The notes under the pieces were generated by a model. That model saw only the letters and a program-made list of their open reading frames with translations, did no database searches and was not told where the DNA came from. 36,480 nucleotides of DNA, from IMG/VR virus record IMGVR_UViG_2526164599_000008; one strand, given 5' to 3'. A program made the position numbers and the translations under genes. Positions 1,533-33,135 of this stretch are shown here, piece by piece. The number at the start of each line of letters is the position of its first letter. Positions within the stretch are counted from its first letter, which is position 1. Source of the stretch: a virus. Taxonomy: Duplodnaviria > Heunggongvirae > Uroviricota > Caudoviricetes.

Positions 1533-1922
1533 TTACTCTTTTTTCTCCGTATCTACATCGGGTTCATCAGCAAATAGCTTGCCCTGCATCCGATCCAGTT
1601 CTTCTTTTCTTACCCGCTTAACCACGCTGTAGACCCACTGAAGCGAAACACCAAATTTGCGGGCCAGTTCATGGTGGTTACGTCCGTTAAACTCCCTGAA
1701 GATTTCCCGGTCGCGCTGACTGACCTTCCATACCATGCCCATCGGGAAATAAACGTTTTGCCCGCCCCAGACCTGCATCATGCGGTTCGCGACGGCCTGA
1801 CCAATCTGGTCGGCAATTGCGGGCTCAATATCAATAATCTCGCGAACGGTCTCAGAGGTATGCTGTGCCAGTTCCACCAGGAGTTCCGGCCCTTTACTTC
1901 GAAACTGATTCAGGTCGCTCAT
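1533..1922 (-). CDS. mor: Mor/C-family transcriptional activator of middle/late genes
   Basis: 129 aa. C-terminal block FREFNGRNHHELARKFGVSLQWVYSVVKR resembles the Mor/C helix-turn-helix region. GGGAG Shine-Dalgarno 6 nt upstream of the ATG. Last gene of the leftward early operon. Confidence 0.6.
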   Translation of the reverse strand: MSDLNQFRSKGPELLVELAQHTSETVREIIDIEPAIADQIGQAVANRMMQVWGGQNVYFPMGMVWKVSQRDREIFREFNGRNHHELARKFGVSLQWVYSVVKRVRKEELDRMQGKLFADEPDVDTEKKE

Positions 1923-9643: not shown

Positions 9644-10051
9644 ATGAGTACAAAAGAGAGATTGCGTGAAGTGATGGATGCTAATGGCATGACAATAAAG
9701 GCATTATCTAACTTATCAAAAATTCCATATCGCTCACTTCAAAACTATTTGCGTGGAGAGAGAGAACCAAACGCAGAGGCTCTTGTTGCGCTAAGCACCC
9801 ATTTGGGTGTATCGATCGATTGGCTACTTACCGGTAAAGAACATATTCCATCTAAAGAAATTGTTGCTGTACCAACACAACATCAATTCAGCCCGTCAGA
9901 CCTTAAAATGCTTGAACTTCTAAACCAGTTAGATCCTGAGGTTCGGCGAGATCTCATGCGAGGCGCTGAAGAAAAACAGCGTGTGATTGAGATGGAAAAA
10001 CAACTGAAGGAATTATCCGCAACGATTGAGCGGTTAAAAAATGTGGGTTAA
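9644..10051 (+). CDS. Immunity repressor, XRE-family HTH (Mu c-like role)
   Basis: Track ORF 9548..10051 trimmed to the ATG at 9644 (MSTKERLREVMDANGMTIKALSNLSKIPYRSLQNYL), a classic HTH_3 pattern. Divergent from the early operon. Confidence 0.65.
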   Translation: MSTKERLREVMDANGMTIKALSNLSKIPYRSLQNYLRGEREPNAEALVALSTHLGVSIDWLLTGKEHIPSKEIVAVPTQHQFSPSDLKMLELLNQLDPEVRRDLMRGAEEKQRVIEMEKQLKELSATIERLKNVG

Positions 10052-10121: not shown

Positions 10122-11129
10122 ATGTCTGAGCAGACCATTGAAGTTAAACACGTTGTAGTTCACATTTTAGACAAACAACAAAATGGAGACGCTTCTGAGA
10201 GATTGAGTCCTGAAGAAGGTCTAGTTACTGAAGCCTCCCAGCGCCTTATAAACGATATTTGTGCAAAATATGCAGGACGCACAGGTAAAGGTTATGGCTA
10301 TTTTGAAGGCGATACGGATAACTATCCTATGGAACGAATGGCTGGGGACTTTCTCGAAGGTGTTGATGATTTCTACCAAAGTTCCTGCCGAATGATGCAT
10401 CACCTGACGGAACGTTCTCAGCGAGAAAACATGGCTACTGGTGGTTATGTTCTTTTTGCAAATATCGTGATAGGACACAATGAACACCTGTTGATAGCTA
10501 TTGTAAGCGCTACCATTGGATCCACTGTCACAGATGATTTTAACATCCAAGATAGTACCTATCTTGATATTGCTAAGCTGCGTATGGCTGGGCGCATTGA
10601 CTTAACCGCGTGGGAAAGTGGCGCAGAGCGCTATATCAGTTTTCTTAAGGGGCAAGGTAATGTTTCAAACTATTTTAAACAGTTCCTCGGCTGTAATGAT
10701 GTCTTAATCGCCAAACGAGAGTCTGAAAAGTTACGTGACGTTTTAAAAGCATTTGCGGCAGAGAAAGGACTTGACGGCGCTGAAAAAGATGCATTTCTTA
10801 AGAGTGCGTTTGAACACTTACATGCACTAAGTAAGGCTGGTGAACCACTTAGTCTTGAAACCCTTGTTAATGCCATTTGGCCCCAGGCTCCCGAGGAGTT
10901 ATCTGGTAAACTTGCTGCTGAAGAGTTGGAGTTATCGGATGGCTTCGTTCCTGATGGTCGAGTCATTCGGGCTCTGGTATCTTTTAAAGGCAAGTCTAAA
11001 TATTGGGAACTTAAGTTTGACCGGGAAGGGAAAACTGAAGGCTATATTGATTATGATCCGGAAACAAATATTATCACCCTACGTAATGTACCTGAAGAAT
11101 TTAGGGAAATGTGGATGACTGAGGTTTAA
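10122..11129 (+). CDS. NdpA/YejK-like nucleoid-associated protein homologue (cargo gene)
   Basis: 335 aa, the same length as E. coli YejK. Blocks GGYVLF, LLIAIVS, YLDIAKL, RIDLTAWESGAERYISFLKG, FKQFLG align by eye with YejK blocks as I remember them. AT-richer than the flanking phage genes. Confidence 0.5.
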   Translation: MSEQTIEVKHVVVHILDKQQNGDASERLSPEEGLVTEASQRLINDICAKYAGRTGKGYGYFEGDTDNYPMERMAGDFLEGVDDFYQSSCRMMHHLTERSQRENMATGGYVLFANIVIGHNEHLLIAIVSATIGSTVTDDFNIQDSTYLDIAKLRMAGRIDLTAWESGAERYISFLKGQGNVSNYFKQFLGCNDVLIAKRESEKLRDVLKAFAAEKGLDGAEKDAFLKSAFEHLHALSKAGEPLSLETLVNAIWPQAPEELSGKLAAEELELSDGFVPDGRVIRALVSFKGKSKYWELKFDREGKTEGYIDYDPETNIITLRNVPEEFREMWMTEV

Positions 11130-13097: not shown

Positions 13098-13344
13098 AAT
13101 CTGTAAGCCTTTTACAATTATAAAAAATATGGCAGGCTAGTCTGGTCTCGCGAGACTGACTGAACCTCGGTCGGCTCACAGCGCATTCCTGTGGGGCGAT
13201 GGCCAGCCCGGTGTTCGGGTACCGGGCTGGTCGTTCTTTCAAAGTCATCATGCAGTGCACGTTTACATCTTCACTATTAACGCTGTTTAAAATCCGTATC
13301 CCGCCACATTTGTGATGCTGTCTCCACCAAACGAGGAGACACAC
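13098..13344. promoter_or_regulatory. Intergenic region upstream of the lysis/late operon; candidate late promoter
   Basis: About 250 bp non-coding. Contains the 12-bp palindrome GTCTCGCGAGAC and the stem-loop CCAGCCCGGT...ACCGGGCTGG. AGGAG Shine-Dalgarno before the ATG at 13345. Confidence 0.4.
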
Positions 13345-17831: not shown

Positions 17832-19327
17832 TGGCGAGGGGTATCTGGGTTTCACCCGATGAATTTGTTGCTTTTTCTGAGCCTCAGAAATCACTGACCG
17901 CGCAGATTGCCTCCCGCAGCCGCGCGATCGACTTTTACGGACTGGGCATGTATCTGCCCAATCCTGATCCCATTCTCAAGGCTCAGGGACGGGATATCCG
18001 TATCTACCGCGAACTGCGCACCGACCCGCTGGTCGGGGGCTGTATCCGCAGACGTAAAGCAGCGCTTAAATCGCTGGAGCGTGGACTGGAGCGTGGTCAC
18101 GCCTCTGCCCGGGTCTTCCGTTTCATCCGCGACATGCTCGACGATCTGGATCTGTCCCGCATCATCGGTGAAATGAGCGATGCCGTGCTCTACGGGTATC
18201 AGCCCTGTGAAATCATGTGGGGCCGTTCGGTCAGGTCGTGGGCGGTGACGGATATTGTCGGCAAACCGCCTGAGTGGTTTCAGTTTGATACGGACAACTG
18301 CCTGCGCTTCCGGGCGCGTGATGCGGGTGTGGAGGGTGAGCTGCTGTCACCGTCAAAATTCGTGGTGCCGGCACAGGATGCCTCGTATGACAATCCTTAC
18401 GGTTTCCCGGACCTGTCCATGTGCTTCTGGCCGGTCGCCTTCAAGAAAGGCGGGATGAAATTCTGGCTCCGCTTTGCCGAAAAGTTTGGCTCCCCGTGGG
18501 TGATCGGTAAGCACCCGAGGGGTGCAAATGATGCAGAGATTGAAAAACTGCTGGACTCCATGGAGCAGATGGTGGAGGACGCGGTGGCCGCCATCCCCGA
18601 TGACAGCAGCATCGAACTCAAAGCCGCGGATGGTAAGGCGGACAGCAGCGAGGTATTCCGCGAGCTGATCACACTGTCACGCAGTGAGATCTCCATTGCA
18701 TTACTCGGTCAGAATCAGACCACGGAAGCGAACAGTAACAAGGCCTCTGCACAGGCCGGGCTGGAGGTAACGGCTGATATCCGCGATGCGGATGCGGACA
18801 TCATTCAGGCGGCAGTGAATCAGGTCATCAGAACGGTGGTCACCCTGAACTTCGGCGATGTGCCGTGTCCGGTCTGGGCCATGTGGGAACAGGAGGCCAT
18901 TGATGACACCCGTGCCACCCGCGACGAAAAACTCACCCGGGCGGGTCTGCGTCTGACCCCGCAGTACTTCAAGCGTGAGTACCAACTGCAGGACGGCGAT
19001 ATTGACGAGACACCACCGTCGGAACGACAGAATAACATGCTGCCGCTGTCATTTGCCGAGGCGATTGATGCTGATATTCAGGCTCAGCAGCAGCTTGACG
19101 ACGCGCTGGACATTCTGATGAACGGAGGCGCGTTAAATGGCACGCTGGAACCCGTCCTGGCACCTCTGTTCAGGCGGGTCGAAAATGGGGTTAACCCGTC
19201 TGAGCTGCTGGGCGAACTGGCGGAGCTCTACCCTCAGATGAACACGGACGATCTGCAGGAGCGGCTGGCCCGCATTCTCTTTGTGACAAATATCTGGGGG
19301 CGTCTGCATGAGCGTGACAACGGCTGA
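17831..19327 (+). CDS. Portal protein (Mu gp29-like)
   Basis: 498 aa, immediately after the terminase. Size and order as in Mu-like head modules. Confidence 0.65.
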   Translation: MARGIWVSPDEFVAFSEPQKSLTAQIASRSRAIDFYGLGMYLPNPDPILKAQGRDIRIYRELRTDPLVGGCIRRRKAALKSLERGLERGHASARVFRFIRDMLDDLDLSRIIGEMSDAVLYGYQPCEIMWGRSVRSWAVTDIVGKPPEWFQFDTDNCLRFRARDAGVEGELLSPSKFVVPAQDASYDNPYGFPDLSMCFWPVAFKKGGMKFWLRFAEKFGSPWVIGKHPRGANDAEIEKLLDSMEQMVEDAVAAIPDDSSIELKAADGKADSSEVFRELITLSRSEISIALLGQNQTTEANSNKASAQAGLEVTADIRDADADIIQAAVNQVIRTVVTLNFGDVPCPVWAMWEQEAIDDTRATRDEKLTRAGLRLTPQYFKREYQLQDGDIDETPPSERQNNMLPLSFAEAIDADIQAQQQLDDALDILMNGGALNGTLEPVLAPLFRRVENGVNPSELLGELAELYPQMNTDDLQERLARILFVTNIWGRLHERDNG

Positions 19328-20590: not shown

Positions 20591-20804
20591 GTTTTCTCTC
20601 TTCAGGCGGGTGATTTATCATTGCCAGCGAATGAGGGGCTGTATTACCTTTATAAAGGCTTTACAGCCTCTGTTTTATAACCGCCTCCGGTTCACCGTAT
20701 TGCTTTCCCTGTCCTTCTCCCCTGATGTTTTCTAAAGCAGATTAAAATCGCCGGGCCTGCATTTCTCACAAACTGTCTCCGACAACATAACGCGGGACAG
20801 CAAA
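20591..20804. promoter_or_regulatory. Intergenic gap in the head module with nested palindrome; candidate late promoter and/or terminator
   Basis: About 214 bp non-coding. GGCTGTA...CCTTTATAAAGG...TACAGCC followed by CTGTTTTAT. Mu has a C-dependent promoter upstream of gene I at the equivalent position. Confidence 0.4.
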
Positions 20805-21920
20805 ATGTCAGCCATTCACATTTTTAAAGCCGGTACTCATACCGATATGCACGGCAAAAAACTGCCGTTCACGCCAGACGATCTTGCCGCCTGCGTGAAA
20901 GCCTATGACCCGTCCGTCCATGAAGCACCACTCGTGATTGGTCATCCCAGAACGGAAGACCCGGCGTGGGGCTGGGTGAAAGCCCTGTCGCTCAGCGGCG
21001 TCGATCTGATGGCAGAGCCTGCCCAGCTGGACCCGCAGTTTGCTGAGATGGTCACCGACGGACGATTCAAAAAAGTGTCCGCCTCTTTCTACCTCCCGGA
21101 TTCACCGTCCAATCCGAAGCCCGGCGTGCTCTACCTGCGCCATGTGGGCTTTCTCGGGGCACAGCCACCTTCCGTCAAGGGGCTGAAACAGGTGTCCTTC
21201 AGTGAGCAGGAAGAAGGTGTGGTGGAGTTCGCCGACTGGCAGGCCATCACGAATGCCTCCCTGTGGGGAAAGCTGCGCGATTTTCTGATCGCCCGCTTCA
21301 GTCTGGACGAAGCAGAAAAAGTCCTGCCGGAATGGCAGCTCAACAATCTGCGCGAAGAGGCGTACCGCGACACACCGTCGCAGGATGCAGCAGGTGCGCA
21401 ATTCAGTGAGACAGGCCAGGTGCCGTCTTCCGCAAGTAACGAGGAATCATCGATGACAAAAGAAGAGATTGAAGCCCTTCAGGAGGAGAACCGCCGCCTG
21501 AAGCAGCAGGCTGCTGATCGCGATGCGCGTGATGCACAGGTCAGACAGGAGCAACTGCATAAGGACAATGTGGCCTTTGCAGAAAAACTGGTCGCAGAGG
21601 GCCGTCTGGCTCCCCGCGCCTCCTCCGTGGTGGTTGCCCTGCTGGATGCCGTCGCCGGTGGCGACAAGCCGGTGGAGTTTGCTGAGGGGGAAAGCCGCAC
21701 ACCGCTGGCCACCGCCTTTCGTTCATTGCTCTCCGACGGGGAGCCGGTGATGAATTTCGCCGAACAGGCCACAAAAGAGCGTGTCGGCGACACGGTGAAG
21801 GTGGATGTGGCAGAGTTTGCGGAAGCCGATCCTGAGCGTCTGGCCCTGCATCAGAAAGCAGTGGCCCTGTCCAAAAAAGAAGGCATCAGCTATGAGGCTG
21901 CTGTCGCACGCTGCCTGTAA
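20805..21920 (+). CDS. Head maturation protease / scaffold (Mu I-like)
   Basis: 371 aa, N-terminal region resembles Mu I. C-terminal half is charged and helical (scaffold-like). Confidence 0.6.
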   Translation: MSAIHIFKAGTHTDMHGKKLPFTPDDLAACVKAYDPSVHEAPLVIGHPRTEDPAWGWVKALSLSGVDLMAEPAQLDPQFAEMVTDGRFKKVSASFYLPDSPSNPKPGVLYLRHVGFLGAQPPSVKGLKQVSFSEQEEGVVEFADWQAITNASLWGKLRDFLIARFSLDEAEKVLPEWQLNNLREEAYRDTPSQDAAGAQFSETGQVPSSASNEESSMTKEEIEALQEENRRLKQQAADRDARDAQVRQEQLHKDNVAFAEKLVAEGRLAPRASSVVVALLDAVAGGDKPVEFAEGESRTPLATAFRSLLSDGEPVMNFAEQATKERVGDTVKVDVAEFAEADPERLALHQKAVALSKKEGISYEAAVARCL

Positions 21921-26621: not shown

Positions 26622-26718
26622 CATCACAGGGGCTCCGGCCCCTTCTTCTTAATCTCCTTTAATATCCGTCACGCGCTTCTCCCGACATACTGCCCTGAAC
26701 TTACACAGGAGCACAATC

Positions 26719-26991
26719 ATGTCACAGACCCCATCCGATACTTTTAAATTGTCTTATCCCTTCACCACTGCTGCAGGCACCAGAATTGAGCAGGTTGAAC
26801 TGAAACGCCTGACGGTAAAAGACCTGAAGCAGGTGCGCAAAATCAGCAAAAACCCGGCAGACTGGGACGAACCGCTGATTGCCCGCAGTACTGGTCTTCT
26901 CCCGGAAGATCTCGACAATATGGATCTGGCTGATTACCTGCAGTTACAGAAACGATTTCAGCTCATCACGGGGATGGGTGAGAGCAACTAG
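26719..26991 (+). CDS. Tail assembly chaperone (P2 gpE-like)
   Basis: 90 aa upstream of the tape measure. Overlapped by a second ORF, the hallmark of tail chaperone frameshift pairs. Confidence 0.6.
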   Translation: MSQTPSDTFKLSYPFTTAAGTRIEQVELKRLTVKDLKQVRKISKNPADWDEPLIARSTGLLPEDLDNMDLADYLQLQKRFQLITGMGESN

Positions 26992-30998: not shown

Positions 30999-32140
30999 AC
31001 AGCACTGCGCAAGTCACATCAGCGTTAACCGGCGTCAGCGATGTGCTGACACCGGTGTTCACTTTGTGGTATCTGCAGAAAAACATCACCTCTGATATCG
31101 CGCCTTATGTCACCCGTGTGACCTGGAGCGATAACATCAAAAATGAGTCCGATACCATTGAGGTGGAGCTGGACGACACCGATGGCCGCTGGCTGGATAA
31201 ATGGTATCCGGGCAAGGGTGACACGCTGACGCTGAAAATGGGCTATCAGGGCGAGAAGCTGCTGTCCTGCGGTACGTTCTCTATAGACGAGATCGAAGTG
31301 AGTTCGCCCGCTTCCGTTGTTTCTATCCGTGGGGTGGCCACCTCGGTTAACAGTGCCCTGCGGACTAAAACCAGTCGTGGTTTTGAGAACACCACGCTGG
31401 CAGCTGTTGCGGGGCGGATTGCCAGAAAGCACCGACTGAAACTGGTGGGCAGCATTGAGTCCATCAGAATCGACCGGGTGACCCAGTATGCTGAAACCGA
31501 CGTGGGTTTTCTGCGCCGGCTGGCCAGCGAGTATGGTTATGCAGTGAAAGTGGTCAGTGACCAGCTGATTTTTTCTCATCTGGCCACACTGCGCAGTCAG
31601 GAGCCGGTCAGGCAGTTAAAACCGCAGGATGTGGCCCGCTTTTCCCTGCGTGACACCATCAACCGGGTCTATAAATCTGCAAAGGTAAAACACCAGAAAA
31701 GCAGCAGTAAAAAACTGATCGTCTACGAAGCTGATGGTGGTACCCGTGAAAGCGACAAAAAGCTCAAAGGTGGTAAGGTTACCAGCGCTGACTCACTTAA
31801 AGTTAACAGCCGCGTCAGCGACCCGGACAGTGCCCGGATTAAAGCGGATTCAGCACTGGCCAGACATAACGAATACCAGCAGAACGGCTCCCTGACGCTG
31901 ACGGGAACACCTCAACTGACAGCAGGCAACAAAATTGAACTGGTGGGTTTTGGGCAGTTATCCGGGCCATGGCTCATAACCACTGCCCGCCATGCGTTTG
32001 ACCGTAACAGCGGCTACACCACAGAGCTGGAAGTGGCACGGGGGCCAGTCACAAGAGGGAAAAAACAAAAAACTCAGAAACTCACGGTTTATCACCCGGA
32101 TGGCAGTACATCGACGGTGATTAAGGAGAAGAAAAAATGA
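30986..32140 (+). CDS. Tail protein D (P2 gpD-like)
   Basis: 384 aa following the X-like gene, in P2 order U-X-D. Confidence 0.65.
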   Translation: MAEINSTAQVTSALTGVSDVLTPVFTLWYLQKNITSDIAPYVTRVTWSDNIKNESDTIEVELDDTDGRWLDKWYPGKGDTLTLKMGYQGEKLLSCGTFSIDEIEVSSPASVVSIRGVATSVNSALRTKTSRGFENTTLAAVAGRIARKHRLKLVGSIESIRIDRVTQYAETDVGFLRRLASEYGYAVKVVSDQLIFSHLATLRSQEPVRQLKPQDVARFSLRDTINRVYKSAKVKHQKSSSKKLIVYEADGGTRESDKKLKGGKVTSADSLKVNSRVSDPDSARIKADSALARHNEYQQNGSLTLTGTPQLTAGNKIELVGFGQLSGPWLITTARHAFDRNSGYTTELEVARGPVTRGKKQKTQKLTVYHPDGSTSTVIKEKKK

Positions 32141-32733
32141 CTGGTGTCACTCGTCAGGTCGGTACGGTCAGTGCCGTTGATGCCGACAGGGTTCAGGCCC
32201 GCGTTCGTCTGCCTGAATGCGATAACCTGCGCACAAACTGGCTTAACGTGCTGCAGCGCAATACCCAGGATAACAAAGATTACTGGCTCCCTGACGTGGG
32301 GGAGCAGGTTGAGGTGCTGCTCGATGCCAACGGCGAGGATGGTGTTATTCTGGGCGCGGTGTATTCAGACGTCGATAAACCACCGTTCAGTGACAAAAAT
32401 ATCCGGGGAACCCGGTTTGCTGATGGTGCAGAGTACAGCTACAACCGGAAGACGCACACTCTGACCATCCGGGGCGGCATTGAGCATATTGTCATTGAGT
32501 GTGGTGCTGATGTGGTATTGAAAACACAGAAAGCCACGATTGACGCACCGGAAACCGAACTTACCGGAGATCTGCGTGTCAGGGGTAAGCTGATTTACGA
32601 AGGAGGCATGGCGGGTTCTGGTGGTGAAGGTGTTACCGCGACCATCCATGGCAATATCGAGATTAAAGGGAATGCCCATGCCACGGGCAGTATGTTGTCT
32701 GATGGCGAAAACTCCAGCCACCACTCCCACTGA
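32137..32733 (+). CDS. Baseplate spike/assembly protein V-like
   Basis: 198 aa. N-terminal OB-fold-like region and Gly-rich C-terminus ending in SSHHSH. Confidence 0.65.
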   Translation: MTGVTRQVGTVSAVDADRVQARVRLPECDNLRTNWLNVLQRNTQDNKDYWLPDVGEQVEVLLDANGEDGVILGAVYSDVDKPPFSDKNIRGTRFADGAEYSYNRKTHTLTIRGGIEHIVIECGADVVLKTQKATIDAPETELTGDLRVRGKLIYEGGMAGSGGEGVTATIHGNIEIKGNAHATGSMLSDGENSSHHSH

Positions 32734-32787
32734 GCTTTTTAAACGCCTTTAATATCAGCGTTCCCGCACGGGGGCAATACTGCCCCC

Positions 32788-33135
32788 ATGAAAACAACCT
32801 CAGTATTCTGGCAACCGACCCTGCAGGCTCCCGGCGAAATTGTCCGGGGGCTGGATGATATCCGGCAGGCGATTCAAATTATCCTGCGGACTCCCCGCGG
32901 CAGCGACCCGCATCGCCCGGAGTTCGGCAGCAATCTGCATCTTTATATCGACTGGCCTGTAGACCGGGCCATTCCGCATGTGGTGCGCGAATCCGTCGAT
33001 GCCATCCGGCGCTGGGAGCCCCGCTGCCAGCTTATGTCAGTTAAACCCGCCGTCGACGGCGAACATCTTACGCTCCGGGTGAGCTGGAAAGGCTCAGACG
33101 GACAGACCCGGACTCAGGAGCTGCTATGGCGCTGA
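32788..33135 (+). CDS. Baseplate protein W-like (gp25/GPW family)
   Basis: 115 aa. GLDDIRQAIQIILRTPRGSDPHRPEFGSNL matches the GPW/gp25 signature. Confidence 0.7.
   Translation: MKTTSVFWQPTLQAPGEIVRGLDDIRQAIQIILRTPRGSDPHRPEFGSNLHLYIDWPVDRAIPHVVRESVDAIRRWEPRCQLMSVKPAVDGEHLTLRVSWKGSDGQTRTQELLWR

Follow-up and report, generated by a model that had tools for sequence, protein, structure and literature searches.

What is the short gap between two neighbouring baseplate genes of a transposable prophage for, and what is the meaning of a strong stem-loop that ends directly at the start codon of the second gene? This question is raised by the virus record IMGVR_UViG_2526164599_000008, a stretch of 36,480 nucleotides (nt) which will be referred to as the window. 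It represents a BcepMu-like (Bcepmuvirus) transposable prophage and is 99.7% identical to Escherichia phage PhiKM over the stretch tested; its minus strand carries the early genes and its plus strand those for lysis, head and tail, the tail genes being P2-like. The original prediction described, in the 54-bp gap between the V-like spike and the W-like wedge gene (V/W gap), a second copy of the motif CCTTTAATATC followed by the stem-loop GGGGGCA-ATAC-TGCCCCC at the ATG of the W-like gene, and suggested either a structure sequestering the translation initiation region or an internal late promoter or RNA processing site. All of these elements were confirmed at their positions, including the assignment of the downstream gene to the GPW_gp25 family (Table 1), and the exact 11-mer CCTTTAATATC occurs twice in the window, at 26656 and 32746. 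The analysis presented here argues with good confidence that the gap represents an activator-dependent late promoter, one of four alike, which would give rise to a leaderless mRNA of the W-like gene.

The agreement between the two CCTTTAATATC copies extends beyond the 11-mer on both sides. The 9-mer ATACTGCCC, which in the V/W gap constitutes the hairpin loop and most of the 3′ arm, follows both copies exactly 20 nt downstream, the intervening 20 nt being unrelated, and upstream both copies share TTAA-N3-CC. The full site consists of the dyad TTAAA-N4-TTTAA, which can also be written TTAA-N6-TTAA, and a subsequent (T/A)A(T/G)C; the V/W copy is TTAAA-N4-TTTAA-TATC, and CCTTTAATATC at 32746-32756 represents the right half of this 18-bp site together with the adjacent bases. 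Searching the window with a loose pattern of the upstream block yielded only four places (13277, 20732, 26649 and 32739), all on the plus strand and located in the gaps 5′ of the lysis cassette, the head gene in the Mu gene I position, the tail assembly chaperone gene and the W-like gene. The block A(T/A)(A/G)CTG, which was absent from the search pattern used, was found at equal distance after all four, so that each site is followed after 19 nt by a -10-like hexamer, none of them with a -35. Using a weight matrix built solely from the V/W-junction sites of seven other lineages, with the window excluded, the same four sites were detected at 18-22.5 bits (32739, 20732, 26649 and 13277), all on the plus strand, compared to 0.07 matches of at least 16.5 bits expected from Markov shuffles of the window. 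The V/W feature is thus real and far beyond chance. In Pseudomonas phage Komp_PAO1_1 and in Klebsiella phage KP12 the matrix again yielded four sites, located at the corresponding four genome positions; in BcepMu it recovered three of these positions.

Several other candidates were examined and discarded. One-mismatch matches of the 11-mer (19996, and 32659 and 35922 on the minus strand) were attributed to chance, as they are not followed by the -10 block at the right distance, and comparison by eye with WATCAANNNNTTR showed no fit to an IHF-type site. A sigma-70 promoter scan of the V/W gap did not reveal any -35/-10 pair.

The arrangement closely resembles the late promoters of phage Mu, which contain a -10 and no -35 and are activated by protein C bound to a 16-bp imperfect dyad centred at -43.5, which overlaps the -35 region, bases -52 to -34 being needed (PMC2582627). 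Mu possesses four such promoters, and the C consensus is TTAT-N5-6-ATAA (PMC12867686); the Mu start sites used for comparison were taken from papers later than the original mapping studies. The dyad centre in the V/W gap, 32745.5, corresponds to -42.5 or -43.5 for a predicted start at 32788 or 32789, and the block conserved among relatives (32735-32756) would span -53 to -32 for a start at 32788. As in Mu, where Plys, PI, PP and Pmom are served by C, four promoters with a -10 lacking a -35 head late operons, and the 14-16-bp imperfect dyad consists of A/T-rich 4-bp half-sites 6 bp apart with a centre approximately 43 bp upstream, over the -35 region. Even the -10 and downstream blocks are similar, TAGACTG of Mu Plys and CAAACTG of Mu PI comparing with AATACTG and CAAACTG in the window. 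Finally, the window encodes a Mor/C homologue (Table 1) with 31% identity to Mu Mor and 37% to Mu C. It is present in a single copy, no Mor/C paralogue being detected elsewhere in the window, and its product is presumed to be the protein binding the four sites.

The differences are equally clear. The half-sites are TTAA/TTAA instead of TTAT/ATAA, so the V/W site is not a Mu C site; Mu carries two genes, Mor and C, whereas the window carries one; and in Mu the genes gp45 and gp46 overlap with no promoter in between, Mu having Pmom and PP instead. An 8-mer of the V/W spacer, TCCCGCAC (window 32763-32769), also occurs in the Mu Plys and PI spacers as part of the 10-bp match reported for them; this is probably a coincidence, as its position relative to the -10 differs and it varies among close relatives. 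The dyad architecture of the four sites, the presence of a Mor/C gene and the known design in Mu together indicate that the V/W gap is very probably a Mor/C-type late promoter of Mu architecture with a different half-site specificity and genome position. The suggestion of an internal late promoter is thereby strongly supported, CCTTTAATATC falling into the predicted activator-binding half. A literature search did not yield any paper on late promoters of BcepMu-like phages; the Mu-type promoter itself is known, and what appears to be new here are the recognition sequence, the genome position and the conserved, predicted leaderless first gene.

To examine conservation, W-like genes with their upstream DNA were collected from one genome-collection scan, four viral-contig scans and phage records, and the W starts were placed by tblastn. 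A site of at least 14 bits was present in 150 out of 162 distinct upstream variants, and in 149 of these 150 the ATG followed 31 or 32 nt after the site. Most of the low scorers had a degenerate site at unchanged spacing, came from truncated contigs or represented a cloning-vector artefact. One record, IMGVR_UViG_3300050189_000002 (L276), carries its W-like homologue behind a lac operator and a pET-type ribosome-site sequence (GGAATTGTGAGCGGATAACAATTCC...AAGAAGGAGATATACC ATG); the 'viral contig' represents an expression construct that was cloned and does not correspond to a natural locus. For the detailed comparison, 143 distinct site-plus-spacer variants from the enterobacterial, Salmonella-type, Burkholderia/Ralstonia and Pseudomonas clades were used, counting the A of the ATG as +1. 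The distance between site and ATG was 31 nt in 127 and 32 nt in 16 variants, and the TTAA...TTAA dyad was nearly invariant; spacer sequences were essentially unrelated between clades. Downstream of the spacer, an A at -11 (92%), an A at -8 (72%) and a T at -7 (93%) were conserved, followed by a generally G/C-rich stretch from -6 to -2 and a C at -1 (92%). The A at -11 and the T at -7 correspond to the two key bases of a sigma-70 -10 element.

The -10 hexamer of the V/W gap ends 6 nt before the ATG at 32788, which is the sole possible start in frame (an in-frame stop is located at 32740), a register fitting initiation at the A of the ATG. Six G/C bases and then CA come after the -10, so that initiation would be expected exactly there. 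Leaderless genes are characterised by a -10 instead of a Shine-Dalgarno (SD) sequence upstream of the start codon, and their mRNAs require a 5′-terminal AUG, GUG working poorly in E. coli (PMC4633059). The W-like gene is in line with this: besides the conserved -10, all 143 variants use ATG as start codon, and only five of them contain an SD-like tetramer within -18 to -4. From the fixed spacing, the -10 register and the SD-less ATG we predict that the W mRNA is probably leaderless and starts at the A of ATG 32788. The leaders of the other three promoters in the window are 20-30 nt long, with a clear SD in the lysis (GAGGAG) and tail-chaperone (AGGAG) leaders and without a clear one in the head-gene leader. 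To our knowledge, Mu late transcripts are not leaderless either, a further difference from the predicted W mRNA.

Known E. coli leaderless genes derive mostly from lambda, P2 and Tn1721 (PMC4633059), and P2 offers a close parallel. There, the activator-dependent late promoter PV heads the baseplate/tail-fibre operon V-W-J-I-H-G, and RefSeq places the start of V-operon transcription on the first base of the V coding sequence. However, P2 uses Ogr as activator, a zinc-finger protein without relationship to Mor/C, and the Ogr site, at 10239-10266 with transcription starting at 10308, is located at a greater distance upstream. Moreover, the leaderless gene is V in P2 and is predicted to be W in the window, where V lies upstream, and the start has been mapped in P2 but is a prediction here.

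Taken together, we propose that a dimer of the single Mor/C-family activator (1533..1922, minus strand) would bind the dyad TTAAA-N4-TTTAA approximately 43 bp upstream of the start, overlapping the would-be -35 position, and would recruit sigma-70 RNA polymerase to the weak -10 AATACT (32776-32781). Initiation on the A of ATG 32788 would then yield a leaderless mRNA for the W-like wedge gene. The J-, I- and H-like genes would use ribosome sites of their own, the promoter adding transcription of wedge and fibre genes to the read-through from upstream. As the J-like gene has its own AGGAG shortly 5′ of its ATG at 33126, within the end of the W-like gene, only W would depend on leaderless initiation. 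The hairpin would arise from a G-run just 5′ of the -10 that is complementary to the C-rich discriminator; the leaderless transcript would not contain it, and it could act only on read-through RNA from the upstream late promoters, in which it would be placed immediately next to the SD-less AUG. The tape-measure, hub and spike genes lie on one side of the promoter and the W-, J-, I- and H-like wedge and fibre genes on the other, and the promoter should raise transcription of this second group. Given this position between hub/spike and wedge/fibre genes, a link to baseplate stoichiometry, as originally envisaged, appears reasonable.

Some observations weigh against this proposal. The TTAA half-sites are not those of Mu C, and their binding by the 129-aa protein is a prediction, as is the start nucleotide, which was deduced from geometry alone. 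Leaderless translation is reported to be inefficient in E. coli, reaching approximately 10% of that of leadered mRNA (PMC4633059), and a leaderless start would be odd for a structural gene unless a low output of W is wanted. In addition, the promoter by itself gives no explanation for the strong conservation of the hairpin 5′ arm GGGGCA beside a freely varying spacer.

Table 1. Features of the V/W gap, its sister promoters and associated genes in the window.
Feature	Position	Strand	Details
Mor/C-family transcription activator gene	1533..1922	-	Pfam PF08765, E = 1.3e-43; 129-aa product
Predicted lysis-cassette late promoter	13277..13319	+	Site TTAACGCTGTTTAAAATC; -10 GATGCT 13314-19; ATG 13345
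Predicted head-gene late promoter	20732..20774	+	Site CTAAAGCAGATTAAAATC; -10 CAAACT 20769-74; ATG 20805
Predicted tail-chaperone late promoter	26649..26691	+	Contains the first CCTTTAATATC copy; site TTAATCTCCTTTAATATC 26649-66; -10 CATACT 26686-91
Predicted start of the tail-chaperone transcript	~26698		21-nt leader with AGGAG; gene at 26719 (Pfam Phage_TAC_7)
V-like baseplate spike gene	32137..32733	+	Pfam Phage_base_V / Phage_spike; TGA stop 32731-32733
V/W gap	32734-32787		54 bp, between the V-like and W-like genes
Putative activator site TTAAACGCCTTTAATATC	32739..32756	+	18 bp; top matrix match in the window
Dyad half-sites	TTAAA 32739-43, TTTAA 32748-52		Centre 32745.5
Spacer	32757..32775	+	19 nt; first 13 nt free to vary among relatives, last 6 nt represent most of the hairpin 5′ arm
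Inverted repeat GGGGGCA-ATAC-TGCCCCC	32770..32787	+	Arms 32770-32776 and 32781-32787; loop 32777-32780
-10-like hexamer AATACT, then G	32776..32781	+	Last 5′-arm base, ATAC loop and first 3′-arm base
Discriminator GCCCCC	32782..32787	+	GC-rich; most of the hairpin 3′ arm
W-like (GPW/gp25, Mu gp46-type) baseplate wedge gene	32788..33135	+	Pfam PF04965, E = 4.8e-12

The hairpin itself is very stable. It folds at -15.1 kcal/mol (z = -3.3), none of 200 dinucleotide shuffles folding as well, and it ends directly before the AUG, which lies outside the stem. Within the enterobacterial clade the hairpin was present in 25 out of 27 variants, with the 5′ arm GGGGCA almost invariant and the preceding 13 nt free to vary. 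Pairing was retained in 94% of the cells compared to at most 64% when the partner columns were slid; changes in the six inner pairs were G.U-compatible with the exception of one A.C cell, and the outer pair alternates between G-C and A-U and is often unpaired. Covariation gave modest support, as 17-19 out of 500 shuffles reached the observed score in this clade and 17-25 out of 500 when the enterobacterial and Salmonella-type clades were both considered. The C/T alternation of the 3′ arm also occurs in the unpaired discriminators of the sister promoters (CTGYCY). Salmonella-type variants possess other stems at the same place (for example GGGGT...ACCCC and AGGC...GCCT) with weak statistics and some A-U/G-C exchanges.

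Folding of the last 22 nt before the ATG, performed for every distinct variant against dinucleotide shuffles, yielded a mean z of -2.6 for the window's clade, -1.3 for the Salmonella-type, -0.5 for the Burkholderia and -0.26 for the Pseudomonas clade. Out of 70 Pseudomonas variants, 50 had no hairpin at all, though spacing and -10 were kept. A family-wide hairpin was consequently rejected, only the window's clade being clearly structured in this test; of the hairpins that visual inspection had suggested for BcepMu, Ralstonia and Salmonella, not every one outperformed shuffles, and scanning the whole window against Rfam 15 did not give any match at gathering score. The conservation of the hairpin is thus confirmed for the enterobacterial clade, in which substitutions keep the pairing, but does not extend across the family as the promoter-to-ATG geometry does. 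Because of this difference, the stem is best regarded as a clade-specific addition outside the conserved mechanism which, if it acts, would act on read-through RNA. Confidence in any specific role of the stem is low.

A role restricted to polycistronic transcripts from upstream, as an addition to the promoter and not an alternative to it, is possible, if rather doubtful. On such RNA the enterobacterial stem may have a secondary function, blocking the SD-less AUG, protecting the 3′ end of the V RNA or protecting the 5′ end of a processed W-J-I-H RNA, three options that are not distinguishable from the sequence. The clade-specific conservation with its pairing-compatible substitutions argues for such a role. 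Moreover, at the same junction, 10 out of 97 Pseudomonas and Burkholderia variants carry a terminator-like stem with a T-run inside the spacer, which suggests recurrent selection to cope with upstream transcripts at this place. Nevertheless, most relatives have neither kind of stem, and the window's stem is not followed by a U-run on either strand.

The original prediction favoured a translational operator, in which an mRNA hairpin would mask the region where translation of the W-like gene begins and so adjust its level. The stability of the stem, its position directly before the AUG and the pairing pattern in the enterobacterial clade, together with the A-U/G-C exchanges in the Salmonella-type clade, are in line with this proposal, and read-through RNA from the promoter at 26649 would carry the stem. 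However, the stem does not include the AUG, and no SD is present that it could hide. The -10 is made up of the loop and both arm ends, and the discriminator of the remaining 3′ arm, so that transcripts from the gap's own promoter should not contain the stem. The structure is not maintained in the Burkholderia and Pseudomonas clades, the covariation support is modest, and the C-to-T changes in the 3′ arm would be tolerable in a pyrimidine-rich discriminator as well. Sequestration of the initiation region is thus not borne out by these data, and we consider an operator improbable. T4 offers a comparison in its genes 25 and 38, where a stem-loop likewise lies immediately 5′ of the start codon of a baseplate or tail-fibre gene; T4 gp25 and the W-like protein are both members of the Pfam family GPW_gp25. 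In both T4 genes the stem brings a distant SD close to the AUG, whereas here no SD was found 5′ of the stem in any variant.

It is very unlikely that the motif itself serves an ordinary sigma-70 promoter as its -10 (TAATAT), which would place the hairpin in a 5′ untranslated region. TAATAT and TAAAAT in the four window sites do resemble TATAAT, but the last T, the most critical base of a -10, is a G in 83 out of 143 relatives (TAAAAG), in contrast to the nearly invariant TTAA...TTAA. Such a promoter would have no -35, its conserved block would reach only to about -27, and both the A/T register at -11/-7 and the fixed 31-32-nt spacing would be left unexplained. An intrinsic terminator or attenuator between the two genes is likewise very unlikely: a G+C-rich stem in an intergenic gap is compatible with it, but a T/U-run is missing after the stem on both strands (ATGAAAAC comes next, with AUGAAAAC after the stem on the plus and GTGCGGG on the minus strand), the terminator scan did not call this stem but called a hairpin at 26628, and the window contains no Rfam match.

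Considering the Mor/C-type promoter with a leaderless first gene as the preferred explanation, a more far-reaching idea may be formulated, which we regard as unlikely but worth stating. Throughout the BcepMu-like family (Enterobacterales, Burkholderia, Ralstonia and Pseudomonas) the wedge gene might be translatable only from the leaderless mRNA of its own Mor/C-type promoter, with the enterobacterial hairpin silencing the same AUG on read-through RNA. If true, wedge supply would be set solely by one promoter and by the capacity of the cell for leaderless (70S, IF2/IF3-sensitive) initiation late in infection, and this design would have a second example in P2 gene V, where the activator is unrelated.

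The results also provide a predicted late-transcription map for BcepMu-like phages, comprising the recognition sequence TTAA-N6-TTAA for a single Mor/C activator and four promoters. These phages are common as prophages: the junction was matched at some identity level in 820 out of 5426 complete E. coli genomes, the match covering at least 80% of the query in 586 of these. The W-like genes would add a large and evolutionarily deep set of candidate leaderless genes to the Gram-negative examples, so far a handful and mostly from lambda, P2 and Tn1721. In addition, the site may aid annotation, as it shows where operons start and where mosaic joints lie and points to a probable misplacement of at least one start codon, that of BcepMu gp32.

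With respect to this gene, the ATG at 18850 annotated as the gp32 start in BcepMu (L100 18812-18865) falls within GATGAT, the predicted -10 of the promoter in front of the Mu I equivalent. Another ATG in the same frame is located 12 nt further downstream, 7 nt after the GATGAT hexamer; it may be the true start, and BcepMu may have a second leaderless gene in gp32. The corresponding gene of the window at 20805 occupies the Mu gene I position and is termed 'Mu I equivalent' in the BcepMu annotation; no Pfam match was obtained for it here. Upstream of its promoter at 20732, in the gap behind the G-like gene, a 38-bp imperfect palindrome, AGGGGCTGTATTACCTTTA / TAAAGGCTTTACAGCCTCT with the core CCTTTATAAAGG, was noticed at 20634-20671. 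Similar palindromes are present in the same gap of BcepMu (GTAAAGTTTTATAAAGGCTTTAC) and Komp_PAO1_1 (GTAAAGCTTTATAAAGCTAC), and in Mu this gap contains the annotated gyrase cut site.

Directly 5′ of the tail-chaperone promoter (window 26628-26648) a terminator-like hairpin, AGGGGC-TCCG-GCCCCT with a T-rich tail, was observed, and BcepMu carries GGCCCGC-TTCG-GCGGGCC-TTTTTT at the equivalent place. The hairpins in both phages suggest that this boundary represents a terminator-then-promoter unit.

Several E. coli matches start at window position 32650 or 32735 (hits H32-H34 among them), and in five relatives (L015, L052, L081, L082 and L092) the upstream DNA is unrelated and the gap is common from CTTNTTAAAC onward (about position 9945 or equivalent). 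Both observations place a recombination (mosaic) joint at the left edge of the activator site. In Salmonella Infantis SARB27 (L103 8987-11822; equivalents of STM4204-4206), a gtrA/gtrB/gtrC-like O-antigen glucosylation operon is inserted into a Mu-like prophage remnant between the V-like gene and the activator site with its W-like gene, the downstream promoter and the 31-nt spacing to the ATG being retained.

The record of KP12 (OM835952.1, Klebsiella phage KP12 clone KP12_2; L101) names Vequintavirinae in its taxonomy line. In gene content and order it is a BcepMu-like transposable phage, with 88.6% identity to the window across the junction. An additional matrix match of 18.6 bits was detected in KP12 at 458 on the minus strand, inside a DNA-invertase gene beside the tail-fibre genes.

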